Source: Candidatus Woykebacteria bacterium (GTDB lineage: Bacteria; Patescibacteriota; Microgenomatia; Woykebacterales; RBG-16-39-9b). Taken from it: 51,690 nt of DNA. The stretch covers positions 1-51,690 of the forward strand of contig JBBDPN010000001.1 in NCBI GenBank assembly GCA_040876265.1. The letters are read 5' to 3'. This document shows, one piece after another, positions 1-17,931 of this stretch. The position numbers and the translations under genes are program-made. The notes under the pieces were generated by a model, which saw nothing but the letters and a program-made list of their open reading frames with translations, was not told where the DNA came from and did not search any database. How positions within the stretch are numbered: the stretch's first letter is position 1; each line of letters opens with the position of its first letter.

Positions 1-76
1 CAGAGTCACCAGTGGTAGCAATACAAGCAATATTACTAATACAGATATCTCCACTAGCTACATCAGGTAGGGTGAA
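1..76. repeat. Exact 76-nt intragenic repeat, copy A (may extend past window edge)
   Basis: Identical to 2485-2560; offset 2484 nt (828 codons, in frame); encodes FTLPDVASGDICISNIACIATTGDS. Confidence 0.95.
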
Positions 77-3000
77 AGTACGGGAAGCACCAACATCGGC
101 GGCTGTCAAGGTAACATCGTTGGCATCATCAGTACTGCTGTTCCCTTCAAAAATAAGGCTATTTCCTTTGTTGGAAGAGGAATCAGAGCCTGTAAAAGCA
201 CTACCAGAAAGTACATTTCCAACAGCTGTAATCGTTCCGACACCACCGACACCAGCGCAGTTACCACTAGTTAAGCAAACATCGCCGGATTCATTGGGAA
301 AAGTATACGTGCGATTACTGCCTAGTGCAGCTGTTTTGATTATGCCGTATTCGGTAGGGGTGCCAGTGCTTTCAAGAATCCTCAATTCAGTTGTGGAACC
401 GCCGCCGTTAAATATAAATTGGCTGCCGGAGCTGCTAAGCCCAATGGTTAAGTTGCCAGATCCATCAACTGTGAAGTCTGCAAAATCTACACTGTCTGTT
501 TCTGTTAGACGTAGTTGCGGACCCGAAGTATCCAGGACCTCCAATGTAGCGTCCGGGCTAGTAGTACCAATTCCAAGTTCTTTAGAAGTATTATCCCAGA
601 AGAAATTAGCGTCGTCATTTATTTCTGAAGCACCGGTAAAGAAAGCGACTCTACCAGAAACGGCGGCATCTGGGGTGGTAACACCGCCACCAGCACCAAA
701 ACAGTTACCCAAAGTTTGCAGACAAACTGTATCATCAGATCCAGCAGTATCAGGTAGGGTCAAAATAGCGCTGCCAGTAGTTAAGGTAGCTGCAGATCTT
801 AGGGTTTGAGTAAAGGCGGTTCCAGCTTGGTCGTTGAAGATGATACTGCCTTGCTCATCACCATCTCCCAAAATAATATTAACATCGTTGTGGAGACCAT
901 CATTATCATTAATTGTAGGTGAAGTGGAAAAAGTCCAAGCGCCGGAGATAGTTTGGGTTTGATTTTCCCGAGTGATTCTTGAGGTAGCGTAATCGATATC
1001 AACTTCAGCAAATGTCCCATTTAAGTTTACATCAAAATCATCGGTAACTGCACCAAATACAATTCTGCTAATACCGGTTAACTCTGTGTTACTATCATCT
1101 TGGACTTCGATGATGCCACTGGTTCCAGTAGCATCTGCTTGACACTCCCAACGCCCATCAGTGTCGTTATCCCATTTTAGAACGTGACCTTCAGAACACC
1201 CTTGTAGCAGGGTTAATTTATCACTACCAGCCCCTCCAAATTCTAATCCCGAGAAGCTAAAACTAGCTCCCACACTGTCAGTAACACCCAATAAATCGAC
1301 TGCAACCACATCACCAGAGGTAGAGATACCATTGCCAGCAGAAACATCGACTGTAACTGCTCCCGGACCACCACCACCAGACAGACCAGCTCCAGCAGTG
1401 ACAGCAGTGACGGCATAACTTCCGATGTTAGTCGAATCTGCCAAAGTACGATCCCCCCAGAACAGGTCGCCGGTTGGAGCCCCTCCAGCCGCCGAGGTGT
1501 TCAGGAGGTTGTTGGCACCAGCCGCTCCCAGGCGAATACTGCCTTCTACGTCTAGATTTGCCACACCAGCAGCCGAGTTTGTAATCGTAAAGGTACGGTT
1601 GGCGGCGTTATTGAAATCAAAGGTAAAGCTAGCTCCAGTTAAAGGTACAGAGGTGTCAGATATGGTCAAGTCTGAGAAGGTTTTAGCTCCAGTAAAGTTT
1701 TGGGTACCTTCCAGGAAAGCAAAGGTACCGTCAGTCCCAAGGTCAGGTAGAGTAAAGGTGCGGGAAGCAGCGACATCAGCTGCGGTGAGAGTAACGTCGT
1801 TGGCGTCATTGACGGCTGTATTACCTTCAAATATAAGAGAGTTACCAAACTGACCACCGCCTGTATCTGCTCCTGTGAAGGCAGGTCCATTGCTCACATT
1901 ACCAACGGCTGAGATATCCCCGGTTCCGGCGCAGTTGTTGAGAGTCAGTAGACAAACAGTATCGCTGGCACCACCTGGATCTGGGAAGTTGTAGATAGTA
2001 TTGGTGGTGAGAGCGAGAACGTTGAAAGTACCGTAGTCTGTACCACCACCATCTTCTCTGGTTCTTAGTTCAGAAGAGGCGTTGTTGAGTAAGATATCAA
2101 AGCCACCGGTCTGGTTCCAATCGGCTGTTAGAGGACCTAGAGCTAAGGTAAGATTGGAACCCTCACCACCACCATCACCACCGGTGATACCCGAACCATT
2201 AGAAATAGAAGCCACGTAGTTACCAGTGGTGTCGGTAGTTAAAGCAACCGCATTCGCCGAGATGGTCAAGACCCCGGTATTACTAATAGTGGCGTCCCCA
2301 CTCATAGTTTCGAAAGAAGGTGGAGATCCGGTTTGACCCAGTAGCAGTTGACCATTAGTACCAGCGGTAGTAGCGCCAATAGCTCCACTACCATTACCGT
2401 AAAGCACACCATTGGCGGTGAATGAGGTTGCACCAGTACCACCAATACCTACCTCTAATACTCCAGAAGAGAAGAAGGAGGTAGCAGAGTCACCAGTGGT
2501 AGCAATACAAGCAATATTACTAATACAGATATCTCCACTAGCTACATCAGGTAGGGTGAAGGTTCTGTCTATACTTGGGTTTACTGCTGTCAAAACTATC
2601 TCCAAGGCGTCATTGGCACCAGTACCTTCAAAGGTAAGAATATTACCTTGGGTACCATTAAAAGCAGCCCCACTACTGACATCACCTACGTCAGTGATGT
2701 CTCCGCCAACCCCGGATCCAGGGCAGTTCCCAGAAAAATCGCAGACCTCATAAGTGACCCCACCTCTAACCACCTCAAACGTATCATTGGTCACACCGAT
2801 CCTCAATGCCTCACTGGTTGCGCCGGTTACAAGCCCACCTTCAACTAACAAATTAGCTACTTGGCCTCCAGTTGAGTTGATTACAGATAGGGTGGTAGTT
2901 GCGCCGCCTTGGAGATCAAAAGTGGTGCTGCCACCAGTGAAAGGAATATTTGTATCTGCTATCGAAAGGTCGCCGGCGATAGCTAATGTGTTACCAGCTT

Positions 3001-5287
3001 CAAAGGTATCAGAAGCGTTACTACGCAGGAAGTCAGCTGAAGTGAGACTGTCTAATAAATCAGCGTTTAAATTGCTAACCAATGTGGTTGAAGCGACGAC
3101 AAATGGGGCAGTACCAGTAGCTAGGGTACTGGTAAGTTGACCACTCATATTAATAGTGGTAACGCCGGAAACGGCACCGGCATTGGTAACTCCGCCGGAA
3201 TTATTATTAATGCCGCCAGAGGAAACTGTCAGTCCAGTACCAAAAGTGCCAGAACCTTCCACTGAAAGATTGGCTACGTTGCCTGCGTCCGAATTTGTTA
3301 CAGTGAATGTTCTAGTCGCAGCTGCGTTTAGGTCAAGGGTCGAATCGGCAGGAGCACCAAGCAACAAACCACCAGCTGCATTAGTGGTGATAGTTGGGTC
3401 AGTTATGCCCACTCCCGAAGTGTACAATCTAAGTAGGCCATTCAGGGATTCATTCGTTCCAAGATTTAGCTCGCCAGAACTTTCGTCAAAATGAAAAGAC
3501 CCAGTGGCGATAGTGCTACCGCCAATAACTACATCATCAGTGAGGGTTGTTAAATAAATAAAACCAGCGCCTTGAGTCCATTTTGAACCACCAGCGCCAA
3601 TTGCAGATTGCAAACAACGGATGGATTGTTGAACGGTAAAATCAGTAGTGCAGTTGACAAAACCACCAGTATAGACGCCAACCAAAAAAGCTCCGGCGGT
3701 AGCATCGCTTGTGGCTGGACCGAGCACTCCGTCACCCCAGTCGTTTAGCTCTACCGTGCCGATTTGCAAAGTTTCGGTGGAAGGTATTTGGATTTCTCCA
3801 GTTGCCGTAACTTGGAAATAAATGGTGGAACCATCATCATTCGTAGTCCGCAAAATACCACCACTGGCTGCACCGGAGCCGCGTACCTCCCAACTATTGG
3901 TAGCGTTATCTACTCCGATGGGGGTGGTAAGAAGAGAAGCGAGTTGAAAGTTGACTTCATCAGGCGGGCCTGCGTCAACAGTTAAACTAAAATCGCCACC
4001 GACAAAATCCAAAATCCCAGCTTCCGTAGTAAGATCAACGTCGTTTACCTGTACAGTGAATATTCCAAAAGCCGCTCCCCAGCTAGGCAGCCCACCACTA
4101 ACTACCAAAGTTTCACCGGCAGCTCCTATTGGTAGCCTAGCTAAAGTTCCAGCACCGGCGGCGTAGAGGATATCGCCAGTGGAGTATGAAGTAATGCCAG
4201 TGCCACCCCGGGTAGCGGCGATGGCTGTTGCTTGCCAGACGCCAGTGCTAACTCCCCCAAGCGTATTTATGCTAGTTTGTCCAGAATAGGTGCTGGAAAT
4301 ACCCACTGTCGGATTTTCACCCGCAGAGACGTCTATTTCACCACCAGTACCTAGCACACTACGGACCACACTGCCTGTGACTACCCCTGGTACCGAAATA
4401 GTTAGATCCTGATCACCGGAAACTGCTACGTTTGCTCCGGGGGCGATGCTATATATAAGATTGGAAGCGTAGACTTCGCCGGCAGCTGCATCTACATTGG
4501 CTCCTTCCGTCACAATCCCGCTCCTGGCGGTGAGTAACCCATTTATATCGGTAGGCGCATTTACGGTCAGAAAAGGATCGGTAATAGTGCCGAGAACTTG
4601 ACCAACTTCGCTAGGCAACTCCAATATTTGCGCCTGCTCTTGGACCTGAGTAGGGTTCAGTGTCCTGAGTAATACAAGTATATCTTTTGATGCATTACGA
4701 AACCCTGTGTTATTAAAGTAAAGTGCTGGAAGGGCCGTGGTAGCTGCTAGCAGCGCCAGGAGTAAATAGTGGGCTGGTTTGACTTTTTTTAGAACCTTTA
4801 TTGCTGCTGGTTCTGCAACCGTAAATGGTTCGTAAGGAGGACCTTTGGAAAAATCTGGGATCTGGACCTTTGGTTGGGTTGGAGCTGGCTTGATTACTGG
4901 GAGGGGTGTTATGTTCACTCCCTGAGGCAAATATTCGAGAGGAGATTTGGAGATACCTTCTTTGCCAGTAGGAGCTTGGGCATTTTCCCCGACAGCTGGC
5001 GGATTGTTCTTTTCGCGCAGTATTTGCTGGACGCTCTTGCCGGACCTAAGCTCATTGTCAATTTCTACCAGAGTCTCGACGACACTTTCTGGGTACGCAC
5101 CGACTGGGGAACCACCAGCAAAGGATTTTCTTTTAGCGTGGGGGAGAAGACCTATTTTGGTGTAATAGCGGAGACGGTTAAAAGGATTGCCTTTACCAAA
5201 AGTCACACCACGCCCCTTAGCGCGGTCAATTACTTCATCAAAAGCTATTAAATTGTCCAGGGCGTTTGATAAAAACCCCTCAGGCAT
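2..5287 (-). CDS. Giant surface/fibre-like protein (partial, >=1762 aa): MerR-like HTH, TM helix, tail-fibre-like repeats
   Basis: ATG at 5287 with GAGGA 9 nt upstream. My hand translation shows no stop to the window edge, consistent with the ORF track omitting it. N-terminus MPEGFLSNALDNLIAFDEVIDRAKGRGVTFGKGNPFNRLRYYTKIGLLPHAKRKS; hydrophobic HYLLLALLAATTALPALYF near aa 173-191; then YSGQTSINTLGGVSTGVWQATAIAATRGGTG, FVVASTTLVSNLNADLLD, ELGIGTTSPDATLEV and Gly/Thr/Ser/Asp-rich repeats. Confidence 0.85.
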   Translation of the reverse strand, partial: MPEGFLSNALDNLIAFDEVIDRAKGRGVTFGKGNPFNRLRYYTKIGLLPHAKRKSFAGGSPVGAYPESVVETLVEIDNELRSGKSVQQILREKNNPPAVGENAQAPTGKEGISKSPLEYLPQGVNITPLPVIKPAPTQPKVQIPDFSKGPPYEPFTVAEPAAIKVLKKVKPAHYLLLALLAATTALPALYFNNTGFRNASKDILVLLRTLNPTQVQEQAQILELPSEVGQVLGTITDPFLTVNAPTDINGLLTARSGIVTEGANVDAAAGEVYASNLIYSIAPGANVAVSGDQDLTISVPGVVTGSVVRSVLGTGGEIDVSAGENPTVGISSTYSGQTSINTLGGVSTGVWQATAIAATRGGTGITSYSTGDILYAAGAGTLARLPIGAAGETLVVSGGLPSWGAAFGIFTVQVNDVDLTTEAGILDFVGGDFSLTVDAGPPDEVNFQLASLLTTPIGVDNATNSWEVRGSGAASGGILRTTNDDGSTIYFQVTATGEIQIPSTETLQIGTVELNDWGDGVLGPATSDATAGAFLVGVYTGGFVNCTTDFTVQQSIRCLQSAIGAGGSKWTQGAGFIYLTTLTDDVVIGGSTIATGSFHFDESSGELNLGTNESLNGLLRLYTSGVGITDPTITTNAAGGLLLGAPADSTLDLNAAATRTFTVTNSDAGNVANLSVEGSGTFGTGLTVSSGGINNNSGGVTNAGAVSGVTTINMSGQLTSTLATGTAPFVVASTTLVSNLNADLLDSLTSADFLRSNASDTFEAGNTLAIAGDLSIADTNIPFTGGSTTFDLQGGATTTLSVINSTGGQVANLLVEGGLVTGATSEALRIGVTNDTFEVVRGGVTYEVCDFSGNCPGSGVGGDITDVGDVSSGAAFNGTQGNILTFEGTGANDALEIVLTAVNPSIDRTFTLPDVASGDICISNIACIATTGDSATSFFSSGVLEVGIGGTGATSFTANGVLYGNGSGAIGATTAGTNGQLLLGQTGSPPSFETMSGDATISNTGVLTISANAVALTTDTTGNYVASISNGSGITGGDGGGEGSNLTLALGPLTADWNQTGGFDILLNNASSELRTREDGGGTDYGTFNVLALTTNTIYNFPDPGGASDTVCLLTLNNCAGTGDISAVGNVSNGPAFTGADTGGGQFGNSLIFEGNTAVNDANDVTLTAADVAASRTFTLPDLGTDGTFAFLEGTQNFTGAKTFSDLTISDTSVPLTGASFTFDFNNAANRTFTITNSAAGVANLDVEGSIRLGAAGANNLLNTSAAGGAPTGDLFWGDRTLADSTNIGSYAVTAVTAGAGLSGGGGPGAVTVDVSAGNGISTSGDVVAVDLLGVTDSVGASFSFSGLEFGGAGSDKLTLLQGCSEGHVLKWDNDTDGRWECQADATGTSGIIEVQDDSNTELTGISRIVFGAVTDDFDVNLNGTFAEVDIDYATSRITRENQTQTISGAWTFSTSPTINDNDGLHNDVNIILGDGDEQGSIIFNDQAGTAFTQTLRSAATLTTGSAILTLPDTAGSDDTVCLQTLGNCFGAGGGVTTPDAAVSGRVAFFTGASEINDDANFFWDNTSKELGIGTTSPDATLEVLDTSGPQLRLTETDSVDFADFTVDGSGNLTIGLSSSGSQFIFNGGGSTTELRILESTGTPTEYGIIKTAALGSNRTYTFPNESGDVCLTSGNCAGVGGVGTITAVGNVLSGSAFTGSDSSSNKGNSLIFEGNSSTDDANDVTLTAADVGASRTFTLPDVASGDICISNIACIATTGDS
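2485..2560. repeat. Exact 76-nt intragenic repeat, copy B
   Basis: Identical to 1-76. Confidence 0.95.
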
Positions 5288-5304
5288 GATGGCAGGTCCT
5301 CTTC

Positions 5305-5330
5305 TGACACCTCGGTCCAAAAAGGTGTCA
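5305..5330. promoter_or_regulatory. 8-10-8 inverted repeat just upstream of the giant gene RBS
   Basis: TGACACCT-N10-AGGTGTCA, perfect dyad; function inferred. Confidence 0.45.
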
Positions 5331-5343
5331 TTTAACCAAAAAA

Positions 5344-5381
5344 TCCCGCGACAAGTTCAATACATCCTTGCTGTCACGGGA
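5344..5381. promoter_or_regulatory. TCCCGCGAC-N20-GTCACGGGA dyad, copy 1
   Basis: Arms at 5344-5352 and 5373-5381; the same arms recur at 5660-5704. On the minus strand the hairpin is followed by a T run. Confidence 0.5.
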
Positions 5382-5393
5382 AATTCTACCTAA

Positions 5394-5423
5394 ACTATAC
5401 CCATATTATTATCGGTTTGTCAA
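5394..5423 (-). promoter_or_regulatory. Sigma70-type promoter for the giant gene
   Basis: TTGACA (5423-5418), 18 nt, TATAGT (5399-5394). Confidence 0.6.
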
Positions 5424-5659
5424 GTTTAGAAGCTAGATTTCAGATGTCAGATCTAAGACGTATGAAGTGTATTTGAAATTTTTAATTCTCAATTTTTAGT
5501 TTTCATTCAATTTGCAAAATTTAATTTTAAATATTTAGATTTGTAGTCCATGAAATGGTTGCCGATTGTAAAGCAATCTATTAGAAAAATTGCAAATTTT
5601 AAATTGAAAATTATTTTTATAAAAGTGTTGTCAAGATAGTATTTACGCTCGAGTGGGTT

Positions 5660-5704
5660 TCCCGCGACGGGAAAATGAACCTAAAATACCTCTATGTCAC
5701 GGGA
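5660..5704. promoter_or_regulatory. TCCCGCGAC-N27-GTCACGGGA dyad, copy 2
   Basis: Arms at 5660-5668 and 5696-5704; TGTCACGGGAAA is identical at 5372-5383 and 5695-5706. Confidence 0.5.
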
Positions 5705-5760
5705 AACAGTTTTGGAGTTGAAATGGGTCAGTTTGGGGGAAAAGCTTGTGATACTATTTA

Positions 5761-6593
<833 letters not shown>

Positions 6594-15295: not shown

Positions 15296-15913
15296 ATGGT
15301 GAGAATCCTCAAAGACAAACGTATAAAAAAGTTTTTTCAGCAGACAAAGAAATTCCAAACCTCCATTATCCTTGCGCTTGTTGGTTTGGCTTTAGTCGGT
15401 GCCGGTCTCTCTTTCCCAAAGGTATTTTCGAGTAAGGAAGAGCCTGAATTTATTCCGTCTCAAAAAACAACCGCTACCGAAAATAAAATCTTCGTGGATG
15501 TTGCCGGCGCGGTAGCCAAACCAGGGGTTTATGAATTGGACAGCGGCTCCAGAATAAATGACCTAGTAAATATGGCGGGTGGCTTTGCAAAAGCCGCCGA
15601 TAAGACGTGGATTTCCAAAAATGTAAACCTAGCCGCAAAACTGGCCGACGGCCAGAAAATTTATATTCCAGCTAAAGGAGAGGGGAGCTCCTCAGTTGTC
15701 CAAACGGGGCAAGTCGCCGGAGAGATTTCCGGTAAAATAAATATAAATTCAGCAACCGAAGCACAACTTGACTCTTTACCTGGTATTGGTCCTGTAAGGG
15801 CGGGGAAAATTATAGAAAATAGACCATACAGCAAGATTGGAGAGCTTCTGACTAAAAAGGTTTTGGGAGAAGCAACCTTTGAAAATATCAAGGACAAAAT
15901 CGCCGTATACTAG
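15296..15913 (+). CDS. comEA: ComEA DNA receptor (TM, SLBB, HhH)
   Basis: VDVAGAVAKPGVY, NLAAKLADGQKIYIP, ININSATEAQLDSLPGIGPVRA. Confidence 0.92.
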   Translation: MVRILKDKRIKKFFQQTKKFQTSIILALVGLALVGAGLSFPKVFSSKEEPEFIPSQKTTATENKIFVDVAGAVAKPGVYELDSGSRINDLVNMAGGFAKAADKTWISKNVNLAAKLADGQKIYIPAKGEGSSSVVQTGQVAGEISGKININSATEAQLDSLPGIGPVRAGKIIENRPYSKIGELLTKKVLGEATFENIKDKIAVY

Positions 15914-17114
15914 CCACAGAATAAAAGTTTTTCTTCTTATTTTTACAGTGCTTGCTTTATTCTCTTGGCGGTTTATCTCTTACCTTCCTAGACAACAAGA
16001 GGGTTACGTCAAGCTCACCAGCACACTATTGGAAGAGACTCAGGTTTACAACCAGTGGCAATATTTTAGCCTTGATGTTTATAATATAAAAGCTTCTAGT
16101 GATTTGGAAATTAATTACGGTGACAGATTGGAAATAGAGGGTGAGGTCAAAGATGGTCGTTTTGTTGATCCTAAAATAAAAATCGTTGGTTCTTCTACTT
16201 GGAGAAAAGTACTTTTTTCAATTAGAAACAATCTCAAAACAAGGATTTTCACTTCCCTTTCTGAACCGCAAGCTTCGCTGTTGGCAGGTGTACTACTGGG
16301 AGCCCGGGAAGAGTTGCCCGACGATTTTAGGGAGTCTCTAAGGAAAACAGGCACCATACACGTTGTGGTGGTTTCTGGTTACAATATTAGCGTTGTGGCT
16401 GGTTTGATGGTTGGCCTTTCTCGCTTTTTCAACCGCCGATTAGCTACAATATTGGCTTTGGCAGCCATCGCATCTTATACTTTGCTCGTTGGAGCCGATC
16501 CGCCGGCTGTCAGAGCCGCCATAATGGGCGCCTTGGGGTTTTCTGCTATTATATTGGGCAGGCAAAGATTTTCGCTTTACGCACTTTTTCTGGCGGCGAT
16601 CTTGATGTTGTTTGTGAGTCCGATTGTGGCTACAGATATAGGTTTCCAACTATCCTTTTTGGCTACAGCAGGAATAATTTTGTTCCAGGAGAAAATCTTG
16701 ACCTTCTCTAGGGTGCTACCTGGACCGTTCAACGAAGATTTGGCGACTACTATTTCTGCACAAATTCTAGTGGCACCTGTAATTTTTTATCACTTCGGTT
16801 CAGTGTCTGCTATATCTCCCTTGGTCAATGCGCTGGTACTTTGGACAATCCCATTTTCAACAATTGGGGGATTTATATTTTTAGTTCTTAGCTTTACGGT
16901 GCCTTTTTTAGCTGCGGTAGCCGCTTGGATAGTCTGGGCGCTGCTTTCAGTTTTCGTCTTTATAGTCGAAGTCTCTAGCCAGTTACCGATCACCAGTTTC
17001 GAATTCAAACCAAACCAAATATTGCCGCTGCTAATATATTACTTATGGTTAGCAGCTGCTATTTATTATCTGAGAAATGTCAGATTGGCTTACAAAAAAC
17101 AAACTAAGAGTTAG
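15879..17114 (+). CDS. comEC: ComEC/Rec2 membrane competence domain
   Basis: TGTIHVVVVSGYNI, VRAAIMG, DIGFQLSFLAT; start position uncertain. Confidence 0.92.
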   Translation: MKISRTKSPYTSHRIKVFLLIFTVLALFSWRFISYLPRQQEGYVKLTSTLLEETQVYNQWQYFSLDVYNIKASSDLEINYGDRLEIEGEVKDGRFVDPKIKIVGSSTWRKVLFSIRNNLKTRIFTSLSEPQASLLAGVLLGAREELPDDFRESLRKTGTIHVVVVSGYNISVVAGLMVGLSRFFNRRLATILALAAIASYTLLVGADPPAVRAAIMGALGFSAIILGRQRFSLYALFLAAILMLFVSPIVATDIGFQLSFLATAGIILFQEKILTFSRVLPGPFNEDLATTISAQILVAPVIFYHFGSVSAISPLVNALVLWTIPFSTIGGFIFLVLSFTVPFLAAVAAWIVWALLSVFVFIVEVSSQLPITSFEFKPNQILPLLIYYLWLAAAIYYLRNVRLAYKKQTKS

Positions 17115-17931
17115 TCTGTACGGGTTGGCCGTATTGAACATTTTGGTATGGAGCTTTTATTTTTCCCTGCCTGATGGTAAGCTCCACCTCAAAGTTTATG
17201 ATATTGGCCAAGGAGACGCTATCTTTGTCGAGACTGCCGGAGGCTACAAAGTTCTTATTGACGGTGGGCCAGACAACAAAGTGCTGGATCATTTAGGAAA
17301 AGATGTTCCTTTTTACTCGCGAAAAATTGATTTACTGGTTCTGACCCATCCTCAGTCCGATCACGTAACTGGGTTGGTGGAAGTGATCAAAAGGTATCAA
17401 ATAAATCATTTATGGATCAACGGTATGGCTGTTGAAAGCCGAGTATCCAAAGAGTGGGACAAAATAATTAATGAAAAAGGACTAAATACTAGGGTTGTCC
17501 GTCAGGGAGATAGGATGGTTTTCCCTGATAAAACTGAATTTAAGGTCCTTTGGCCCCTGCAAGGGGTCGTAAATAGCGATCCAAACGCCCACTCGATAGT
17601 TCTGCATTTGGTTTTTGGTCAATTTGACGCGTATCTTACTGGAGATGCGGATGCGCAAGTGCAACCGTACACGGTGAACCCCGGTCACATTGAATTTTTT
17701 AAAGTACCCCACCACGGAGGTAAAGGAGCCTTGAGGGAGGACTACGTAGCTGCCCTATCACCTCAAGTAAGCGTTATTTCCGTGGGTAGCAAAAACCCTT
17801 ATGGCCATCCAAGAGGCGAGGTATTGGATATTCTCGCCAAAACTGGATCAAAAGTTTACCGGACCGATAAGTGGGGCACCGTAGAAATTGTGAGTGATGG
17901 TAATAGTTGGTATACTAATTCGCAACGATGA
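17077..17931 (+). CDS. ComEC-associated metallo-beta-lactamase-fold protein
   Basis: DIGQGDA, LTHPQSDHVTG, KVPHHG, NPYGHP. Confidence 0.9.
   Translation: MSDWLTKNKLRVSLYGLAVLNILVWSFYFSLPDGKLHLKVYDIGQGDAIFVETAGGYKVLIDGGPDNKVLDHLGKDVPFYSRKIDLLVLTHPQSDHVTGLVEVIKRYQINHLWINGMAVESRVSKEWDKIINEKGLNTRVVRQGDRMVFPDKTEFKVLWPLQGVVNSDPNAHSIVLHLVFGQFDAYLTGDADAQVQPYTVNPGHIEFFKVPHHGGKGALREDYVAALSPQVSVISVGSKNPYGHPRGEVLDILAKTGSKVYRTDKWGTVEIVSDGNSWYTNSQR

Follow-up and report, generated by a model that had tools for sequence, protein, structure and literature searches.

Winged helix-turn-helix (wHTH) domains of the MerR type serve as chromosome-membrane or chromosome-pole anchors in several bacteria. Examples are RacA of Bacillus subtilis, RocS of Streptococcus pneumoniae and RicO of Staphylococcus aureus; RacA and RicO use few specific sites (25 ram sites and nine ricS sites, respectively), and an unrelated transmembrane (TM) domain can stand in for the membrane anchor of RocS (PMC4914108, PMC11500499, bioRxiv 10.64898/2026.03.06.710092). 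The B. subtilis protein Noc also recruits DNA to the membrane (PMC4331003). Here, we describe a giant gene from a Candidatus Woykebacteria genome (GenBank assembly GCA_040876265.1) whose product appears to join a MerR-type head to a TM helix and a very large outer domain, and may well bind a palindrome in its own control region. The gene opens the stretch analysed, here called the window: 51,690 nucleotides at the start of contig JBBDPN010000001.1. This is the first 51.7 kb of contig C1, one of two contigs of a genome (G000) of 834 kb that is reported to be 100% complete and has a size usual for CPR (candidate phyla radiation) bacteria, or Patescibacteria.

The reading frame lies on the minus strand, which the initial annotation left unstated, and runs from an ATG at 5287 to base 2 and then off the contig. 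Its 1,762 codons contain neither stop nor frameshift, placing the HTH and the outer domain in a single frame as that annotation had assumed; the stop codon is missing because C1 ends there. The start likewise lies upstream of the HTH: a Shine-Dalgarno sequence, GAGGA, is found at 5301-5297, 9 nt before the ATG, and the resulting start, MPEGF..., agrees with the N-termini of close homologues.

The N-terminal domain of the protein, the head, is a MerR-type winged HTH that groups with the minimal forms of this fold. In Pfam, the single giant sequence gave a sub-threshold MerR match (E 0.061). A profile built from an alignment of 43 head sequences (A1) matched the giant protein with E 3.5e-37 and, among PDB sequences, had as its top matches MerR 4ua1 (E 2.4e-5), the MerR-family regulator 3gpv, TnrA and GlnR, with the match spanning the recognition helix α2, the wing, α3 and α4. 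Individually, 31 of the 43 members matched PF13411 (best E 2.3e-10). An AlphaFold2 (AF2) model computed from the A1 alignment reached a predicted local distance difference test (pLDDT) score of 88.7 with the order strand-α1-α2-β-β-α3-α4; single-sequence AF2 of residues 1-230 was uninformative (pLDDT 42). Foldseek with the head model returned the GlnR-DNA complex first (probability 0.97), together with SoxR (0.99), HiNmlR and CarH. The MerR-like segment that drew attention to this protein, NRLRYYTKIGLLP, occupies residues 37-49, and the most conserved parts of the family are the MerR DNA-reading elements, namely RLRYY, GLLP and the wing arginine. The head thus carries the canonical signature of an N-terminal α1-α2-wing-α3-α4 with RYYE/GLL. 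Nevertheless, it is not a canonical MerR regulator, because two parts are absent. There is no α5 coiled-coil dimerisation helix, the model ending with α4 at residue 94 where the Pro-rich linker begins, and Pfam and similar scans found no C-terminal effector or metal-binding domain after the head, where linker, TM helix and ectodomain lie instead.

The remainder of the protein resembles a single-pass membrane protein with its N-terminus inside and its C-terminus outside, as predicted from sequence. Proline makes up 11% of residues 1-200, and the Pro-rich linker is followed by one hydrophobic helix, in the order originally described. The most hydrophobic 19-mer of the fragment, HYLLLALLAATTALPALYF at residues 173-191, has a Kyte-Doolittle value of 1.56. 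It is preceded by KVLKKVK (charge +4) and followed by a near-neutral stretch; therefore, the N-terminus should be inside. This single signal-anchor with positive-inside charge, repeated in about 260 homologue clusters, is consistent with the proposed type II topology. The ectodomain covers about 1,570 residues in the fragment, and residues 201-1762 contain 14.7% G, 13.5% T, 9.9% A, 9.2% S and 7.2% D, in line with the tail of more than 1500 Gly/Thr/Ser/Asp-rich residues first reported. An internal similarity map revealed recurring motifs of the form (T/F)(L/F)PD..G..C....NC. That the ectodomain forms a fibre with a role in host contact is an assumption, drawn from its composition and from homologues with beta-helix or adhesin-like annotations. 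Neither half of the giant protein matched tail-fibre or chaperone families in Pfam, NCBIfam and PHROGs, and no PDB sequence relatives of the ectodomain or of the C-terminal module were found. A phage origin as a tail fibre was rejected given these empty searches for both halves and the housekeeping neighbours of the gene.

Head and TM helix together behave as a reusable module. A search with residues 1-103 against 1.84 billion cluster representatives yielded 260 proteins at E<=1e-3, 103 of them at E<=1e-10, with lengths from about 80 to 3,674 residues. The head is almost always N-terminal in these homologues, and nearly all of those longer than about 160 residues show a single strongly hydrophobic segment that follows the head at a distance of 10-110 residues. 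The giant protein shows both features of this CPR family, a match to the head profile at its N-terminus and one TM helix. Several homologues carry two tandem heads before the TM segment, an arrangement that fits a palindromic target. As suspected at the outset, the family is present in databases yet uncharacterised; for instance, one 2,667-residue member is labelled by NCBI only as 'MerR family DNA-binding transcriptional regulator'.

Of 401 genomes sampled from the phylum, 26 had the head, which is present as a single copy in G000. Giant forms occur in all three genomes of its family, the other two being G393 (a frame of 2,379 codons) and G288 (5,963 codons), and the giant frames of other lineages range from 1,315 to 11,716 codons. 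The longest, L027 (G198:C1:179261...), begins with the same head. Small forms of about 230 residues are found in family f56 and others and consist of the head, the TM helix and an outside domain of about 90 residues ending in FNWW, so that ectodomain size across the family extends from 90 to more than 11,000 residues. The small outside domain can be aligned to the final 93 residues of the giant protein (E 3e-10), whose C-terminus reads ...KFDWWIIQ, and a Wzy_C-like homologue lies downstream of the small form too. The giant gene combines the same two features, a terminal FxWW domain and a downstream Wzy_C-like gene. Because the terminal residues align, the giant protein can be described as the small one in which over 3,000 residues separate the anchor from the terminal domain as an insertion; on sequence grounds, it represents an expanded form of the protein of about 230 residues found in front of the same Wzy_C/TPR gene in other lineages. 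A related-locus search with the single giant protein found one locus, labelled as a Nanoarchaeia metagenome-assembled genome. L049 (DASVHF010000013.1) has the closest public head (82% identity) and the same promoter and leader arrangement, and its label, 'Candidatus Nanoarchaeia archaeon', is probably attached to a mis-binned or mis-labelled CPR contig.

The putative target of the head is a palindrome with the family form TTCCCGT-N-ACGGGAA. Its occurrence was followed using reversed patterns as control. Two copies lie next to the giant gene, both upstream of it, at 5659-5673 with one mismatch and at 5368-5382 with two. The former is the only G000 match within one mismatch to TTCCCGTNACGGGAA, against about 0.09 expected in the genome by chance. 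Four TTCCCG/CGGGAA half-sites occur within the 535-bp region upstream of the gene, compared with an expectation of 0.21 (P 7e-5). Across the genome sample, at least three sites were present in 11 of the 26 genomes with the head and in 0 of the 375 without it (Fisher 8e-15), the counts in head-less genomes equalling the level of the reversed-pattern control. A site within two mismatches was found in 16 of 28 gene loci, compared with 0-1 for control patterns. In G393, the single genomic site lies 99 bp before the head domain of its giant gene.

The position of the site relative to promoter elements is also regular. In the giant forms (G000, G393, G288, G026, G339 and L049), the motif begins about 8-13 nt after a good -10 box, which, as judged from sequence, is a repressor-type location. 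In the small forms, the site lies just past the gene's stop, 4-9 nt upstream of the -35 box (TTGACA) of the Wzy_C-like gene; since it is upstream of that -35, and hence outside the Wzy_C-like transcript, the small-form site would act as DNA rather than RNA. The canonical MerR operator sits within an over-long -35/-10 spacer of 19-20 bp; the giant gene differs from this, having a spacer of 18 bp and its motif beyond the -10 box on the downstream side. Operators of GlnR and TnrA are short palindromes near promoters. The Noc site, ATTTCCCGGGAAAT, resembles TTTCCCG..CGGGAAA, most likely by coincidence.

Two other accounts of the palindrome were rejected: an encoded peptide motif, as sites fall in all three frames of unrelated open reading frames (ORFs), and a purely RNA hairpin or terminator throughout the family, as the small-form copies precede the next gene's -35. 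Variant palindromes were seen elsewhere. The promoter region of L027 has TTCTCAT-C-ACGAGA, and family f14 seems to use TTCTCG..CGAGAA in place of TTCCCG..CGGGAA, with both half-sites changed symmetrically. The second-best palindrome of the genome, TTCTCGCGACGGGAA at C2:26223, is 14/15 identical to the window site and directly follows an ATAAAT box. It lies in a 1.1-kb segment (G000:C2:25247-26337) that has no ORF of at least 90 residues and no Rfam match, and that contains extra CGGGAA/TCCCG half-sites. No known RNA family was found in the control region of the giant gene or at C2:26223.

Taken together, these observations give a probability of roughly one half to the reading that the membrane-tethered head binds DNA at its own locus, with repression or tethering of that locus as the probable outcome. 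A pair of heads would bind TTCCCGT-N-ACGGGAA. Since the head is fixed in the membrane and cannot leave it, such binding would draw the locus to the membrane. The degenerate copy overlaps the predicted transcript start and would thus occupy a repressor position, and the near-perfect copy lies 250 bp upstream, where the control region also serves the divergent ATPase-like operon. Because the G000 targets are confined to the gene's own control region, the most likely job would be negative autoregulation and/or cis-tethering of a very costly gene, which takes up about 1.2% of the genome. The co-oriented Wzy_C-like gene would probably be under the same control, and the ectodomain would act as a surface or host-contact structure. 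This layout needs no transfer of signals from ectodomain to head, and the initial suggestion that host contact is coupled to transcription is without support.

Several points weigh against autorepression or cis-tethering. Head and palindrome are linked by correlation, and phylogeny is a partial confounder, with family f56 supplying seven of the 11 site-rich genomes; DNA binding by the head is inferred from comparative genomics. The missing MerR dimerisation helix, the moderate hydropathy of the TM segment and the two mismatches in the promoter-proximal copy of the palindrome also count against it. The proximal copy, TTTCCCGTGACAGCAA, has a partner arm, TGTCGCGGGA, 18 nt further on, followed by T6, and the leader RNA folds into a hairpin with a U6 tract (-37.8 kcal/mol, z -3.98). 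In L049, both arms and the T-run are kept with a different loop, which suggests that some of the proximal signal may work at the RNA level. For the proximal element of the giant gene, a leader hairpin of the attenuator type therefore deserves consideration, either in addition to a DNA site or in its stead. Finally, in the site-rich genome G057, 13 of 14 sites lie inside ORFs, in all three reading frames, and so the family may originally have served to organise the chromosome and not to control promoters.

These intragenic sites are central to an alternative in which head and TM helix act as a chromosome-membrane anchor instead of a regulator, binding scattered palindromes for segregation or division in the manner of RacA, RocS, RicO or Noc, with the giant form having inherited the head and one site. 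The use of MerR-type wHTH domains by the first three fits this idea, as does a mild, suggestive ori-proximal clustering in small-form relatives: seven of ten sites lie on the 258-kb dnaA contig in G030 (P 0.004), and eight of 11 within 140 kb of dnaA in G057 (P 0.026). The fixed position of the site beside promoter elements in both small and giant forms is, however, difficult to align with it, as are the lack of a coiled coil and the single good site of G000, at its own promoter region and 155 kb from oriC, which led origin-proximal anchoring to be rejected for this genome. We regard an anchor without regulatory function as rather unlikely here. Distinctly unlikely, in our estimate, is that the head is a cytoplasmic plug or docking domain without DNA binding, one that sets the topology or brings in a partner, comparable to the RodZ HTH that binds MreB, with the palindrome read by another factor or as an RNA hairpin. 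Giants with the same C-terminal module do carry other heads (integrase SAM-like or canonical MerR) or none, and both the lack of a dimerisation helix and the leader hairpin with its U-tract conserved in L049 are compatible with such a role. Yet the alternative heads are DNA-binding folds too, conservation within the family is highest in the MerR DNA-reading elements, palindrome enrichment follows head presence, and the small-form sites lie outside the downstream transcript. We would give long odds against a sensor in the style of ToxR or CadC, in which the ectodomain senses host contact or envelope state and alters the head by oligomerisation or proteolytic release. Although the topology is that of ToxR, CadC and TcpP and the site is at promoter elements, there is no sensor-type domain and no sign of cleavage sites, and the size range of the ectodomains fits structural cargo better than a common sensing mechanism.

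The giant gene itself was assembled here from two halves. Contig C2 opens with a 5'-open frame of 1,620 codons and a composition like that of the C1 frame, and this frame was taken as the rest of the gene that the initial annotation had sought. The break in C1 lies at an internal repeat, a typical assembly break point. Residues 847-934 match residues 1669-1762, and residues 1006-1120 match the first 114 residues of the C2 frame; this repeat register predicts a gap of about 71 residues between the frames. Supporting the join, the orthologue in G393, from the same family and on a single contig, has 2,375 residues, and its order agrees with that of the C1 fragment at the beginning and of the C2 fragment at the end. 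Its neighbours are also those of the giant gene, the divergent ATPase-like operon to one side and the Wzy_C/TPR gene (33% identity, E 5e-133) to the other. Moreover, head and C-terminal module are on the same contig in 28 of 119 database proteins with that module. From the repeat at the break, its register, the G393 synteny and these single-contig proteins, we conclude on sequence evidence that the frames are one gene of at least 3,382 codons plus the gap. The join, reconstructed from synteny and repeat register, is a further point of weakness in the reading proposed above. An assembly artefact, with two separate genes at the contig ends or a chimera from repeat collapse, would agree with a break at a 79-nt repeat; it is hardly credible given that the two open frames point into each other, that G393 is syntenic and collinear, and that many full-length single-contig proteins have both ends. 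Coordinates are collected in Table 1.

Table 1. Features of the giant gene, its control region and its divergent neighbour, in window coordinates.
Feature	Position	Strand	Basis or remark
Giant gene, N-terminal 1,762 codons	2..5287	-	Open at contig end; remainder (1,620 codons) at G000:C2:1-4863, outside the window
79-nt block, 99% identical to 2485-2563; repeat where the assembly broke	1..79	.	Sequence comparison
Predicted extracytoplasmic G/T/A/S/D-rich region with degenerate internal repeats	2..4714	-	Composition; internal similarity map
Single TM signal-anchor helix (predicted), residues 172-191, KVLKKVK on N side	4715..4774	-	Hydropathy maximum; homologues
Pro-rich, probably disordered cytoplasmic linker, residues 96-170	4778..5002	-	Sequence; low pLDDT, no regular structure
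MerR-type winged HTH head, residues 10-95: strand, α1, α2, β-hairpin wing, α3, α4	5003..5260	-	Profiles, AF2, Foldseek
Second leader dyad GACACCTTT...GAGGTGTC, abutting the Shine-Dalgarno sequence	5303..5329	-	Sequence; RNA folding
Promoter-proximal element, beginning about 10 nt after the -10 box	5338..5383	-	Conserved in L049 and G288
Predicted sigma-70 promoter: TTGACA, 18 nt, TATAGT (11/12 matches)	5394..5423	-	Consensus match; same layout in relatives
Distal module: palindrome and second exact TGTCACGGGAAA (5695-5706), 12-bp dyad, 27-nt spacer	5657..5707	.	Sequence
Distal palindrome TTCCCGCGACGGGAA	5659..5673	.	Sole genome match to TTCCCG-N3-CGGGAA
Putative target sequences of the head: TTCCCGTAACGGGAA; window copies TTCCCGTCGCGGGAA, TTCCCGTGACAGCAA			
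Divergent neighbour: signal peptide, exported domain, subunit-c-like TM hairpin without carboxylate	5823..6593	+	Homology to giant C-terminal barrel

The C-terminal end of the protein is a module common to hundreds of giant CPR proteins. For its last 470 residues, over 325 homologues were found, located where giant CPR proteins end; the heads of these giants are MerR-type, integrase-SAM-like or absent. The ectodomain closes with a neck rich in Cys, followed by a small barrel and, at the terminus, an FDWW sandwich-like domain. The barrel motif, GRVPVKVS.ENG.I.PGD.LTSS.TPGVAMKAT, gave weak matches to XM1_gp53, Phage_cement_2 and Peptidase_G2; no match of the barrel to PDB sequences was found. 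A likeness of the C-terminus to the neighbouring gene at 5823-6593, with a Peptidase_G2/S74-like domain, had been suspected. The likeness to the neighbour's exported domain is clear (42% identity over 125 residues, E 9e-18); Peptidase_G2 (PF11962) was matched weakly, by two of 23 family members (best E 0.005), and Peptidase_S74 gave no match to the C-terminal domain.

The gene at 5823-6593 is the first of an F1-type ATPase operon, followed by genes for b-like, delta, alpha, gamma and beta subunits, and the divergent pairing of its homologue with the giant gene is kept in G393 and G288. Its TM hairpin resembles ATP-synthase subunit c, with TM2 lacking the carboxylate; canonical a and c subunits are encoded elsewhere, at C1:279.6-280.5 kb. 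On the other side, the Wzy_C/TPR gene (C2:6070-8355) is found downstream of the giant gene past an IS200-like insertion, a Y1 transposase gene (PF01797, E 2e-9) at G000:C2:5245-6003 (-) between it and the giant-gene stop. In G393, the giant gene and the Wzy_C/TPR gene are about 12 nt apart. More speculatively, the giant host-contact fibre, the Wzy_C/TPR partner (with a putative role in glycosylation or assembly) and the proton-blind F-type ATPase might form one membrane-proximal unit. The ATPase ring subunit would display the fibre-end barrel, and the head would bind the palindromes of the shared control region, hold the locus at the membrane so that a protein of more than 3,400 residues could be synthesised and exported in cis, a programmed transertion, and count finished fibres by autorepression. 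We consider this combination improbable.

No phage genes were found in the 20 kb beyond the giant gene, where an F-type ATPase-like operon, leuS, comEA/comEC and argS lie instead, and a PHROGs search with the giant protein gave no match, in accordance with the phage-free neighbourhood originally described. The comEA (SLBB+HHH) and comEC (Competence + metallo-beta-lactamase) genes are at window positions 15296-17931 (+), 10 kb from the giant gene, with comEC apparently split into two overlapping ORFs (15879-17114 and 17077-17931). The giant gene is located about 155 kb from oriC (dnaA at C2:156.4 kb). It lies on the lagging strand, head-on to replication; nearly all other window genes are on the leading strand.

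Binding of the palindrome by the head, if it occurs, would represent a new architecture for linking DNA to the envelope, with a MerR-type domain on a true TM helix. It would provide an anchor for surface proteins of up to more than 11,000 residues in bacteria that depend on host-cell contact, and would account for the way in which tiny genomes regulate or localise the production of proteins using more than 1% of their coding capacity. The principle known from RacA, RocS and RicO would also be extended beyond Firmicutes. For annotation, these findings call for caution, as the giants currently go by the names 'MerR family transcriptional regulator' or 'hypothetical', and assemblers usually break them up.

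A search of a literature library turned up no description of MerR proteins tethered to the membrane, nor of CPR giants with MerR heads. Several systems share parts of the design. Like RacA, RocS and RicO, the giant protein has an N-terminal MerR-type wHTH domain without an effector domain and joins membrane attachment to DNA binding, the latter inferred for its head. There is no detectable sequence relationship to them beyond the fold class. In place of their amphipathic helix or DivIVA, it has a true TM helix and an ectodomain, and in place of a coiled coil, a Pro-rich linker. Its palindrome also differs, and the sole G000 site is at its own promoter rather than around oriC, unlike the several origin-proximal sites of the RacA type.

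GlnR and TnrA (4r4e, 4r22), the best sequence and structure matches of the head, and BldC (PMC5859096) share its α1-α2-wing-α3-α4 core and its lack of a long dimerisation helix. These proteins are soluble, whereas the giant-protein head is membrane-tethered and has an FGKG insertion between α1 and α2. ToxR, CadC and TcpP have the same N-in, single-pass arrangement of a cytoplasmic DNA-binding-type domain and an outside domain, but theirs are an OmpR/PhoB-type DNA-binding domain and a small outside sensor, in contrast to a MerR-type head and a giant repeat ectodomain. As with Noc, sequence-specific palindromes are spread along the chromosome, many lying within genes, and would be bridged to the membrane; Noc, however, has a ParB-type fold, depends on cytidine triphosphate (CTP) and uses an amphipathic helix. 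The giant proteins of Omnitrophota are similarly very large and mostly extracellular, and are encoded in small genomes by genes that assembly fragments, but they have many TM segments and SecA-like domains, and no MerR or HTH head is mentioned for them (bioRxiv 10.1101/2023.11.21.568195). In summary, the giant protein is a real, conserved and unusual variant of membrane-tethered DNA-binding proteins and MerR-type anchors.

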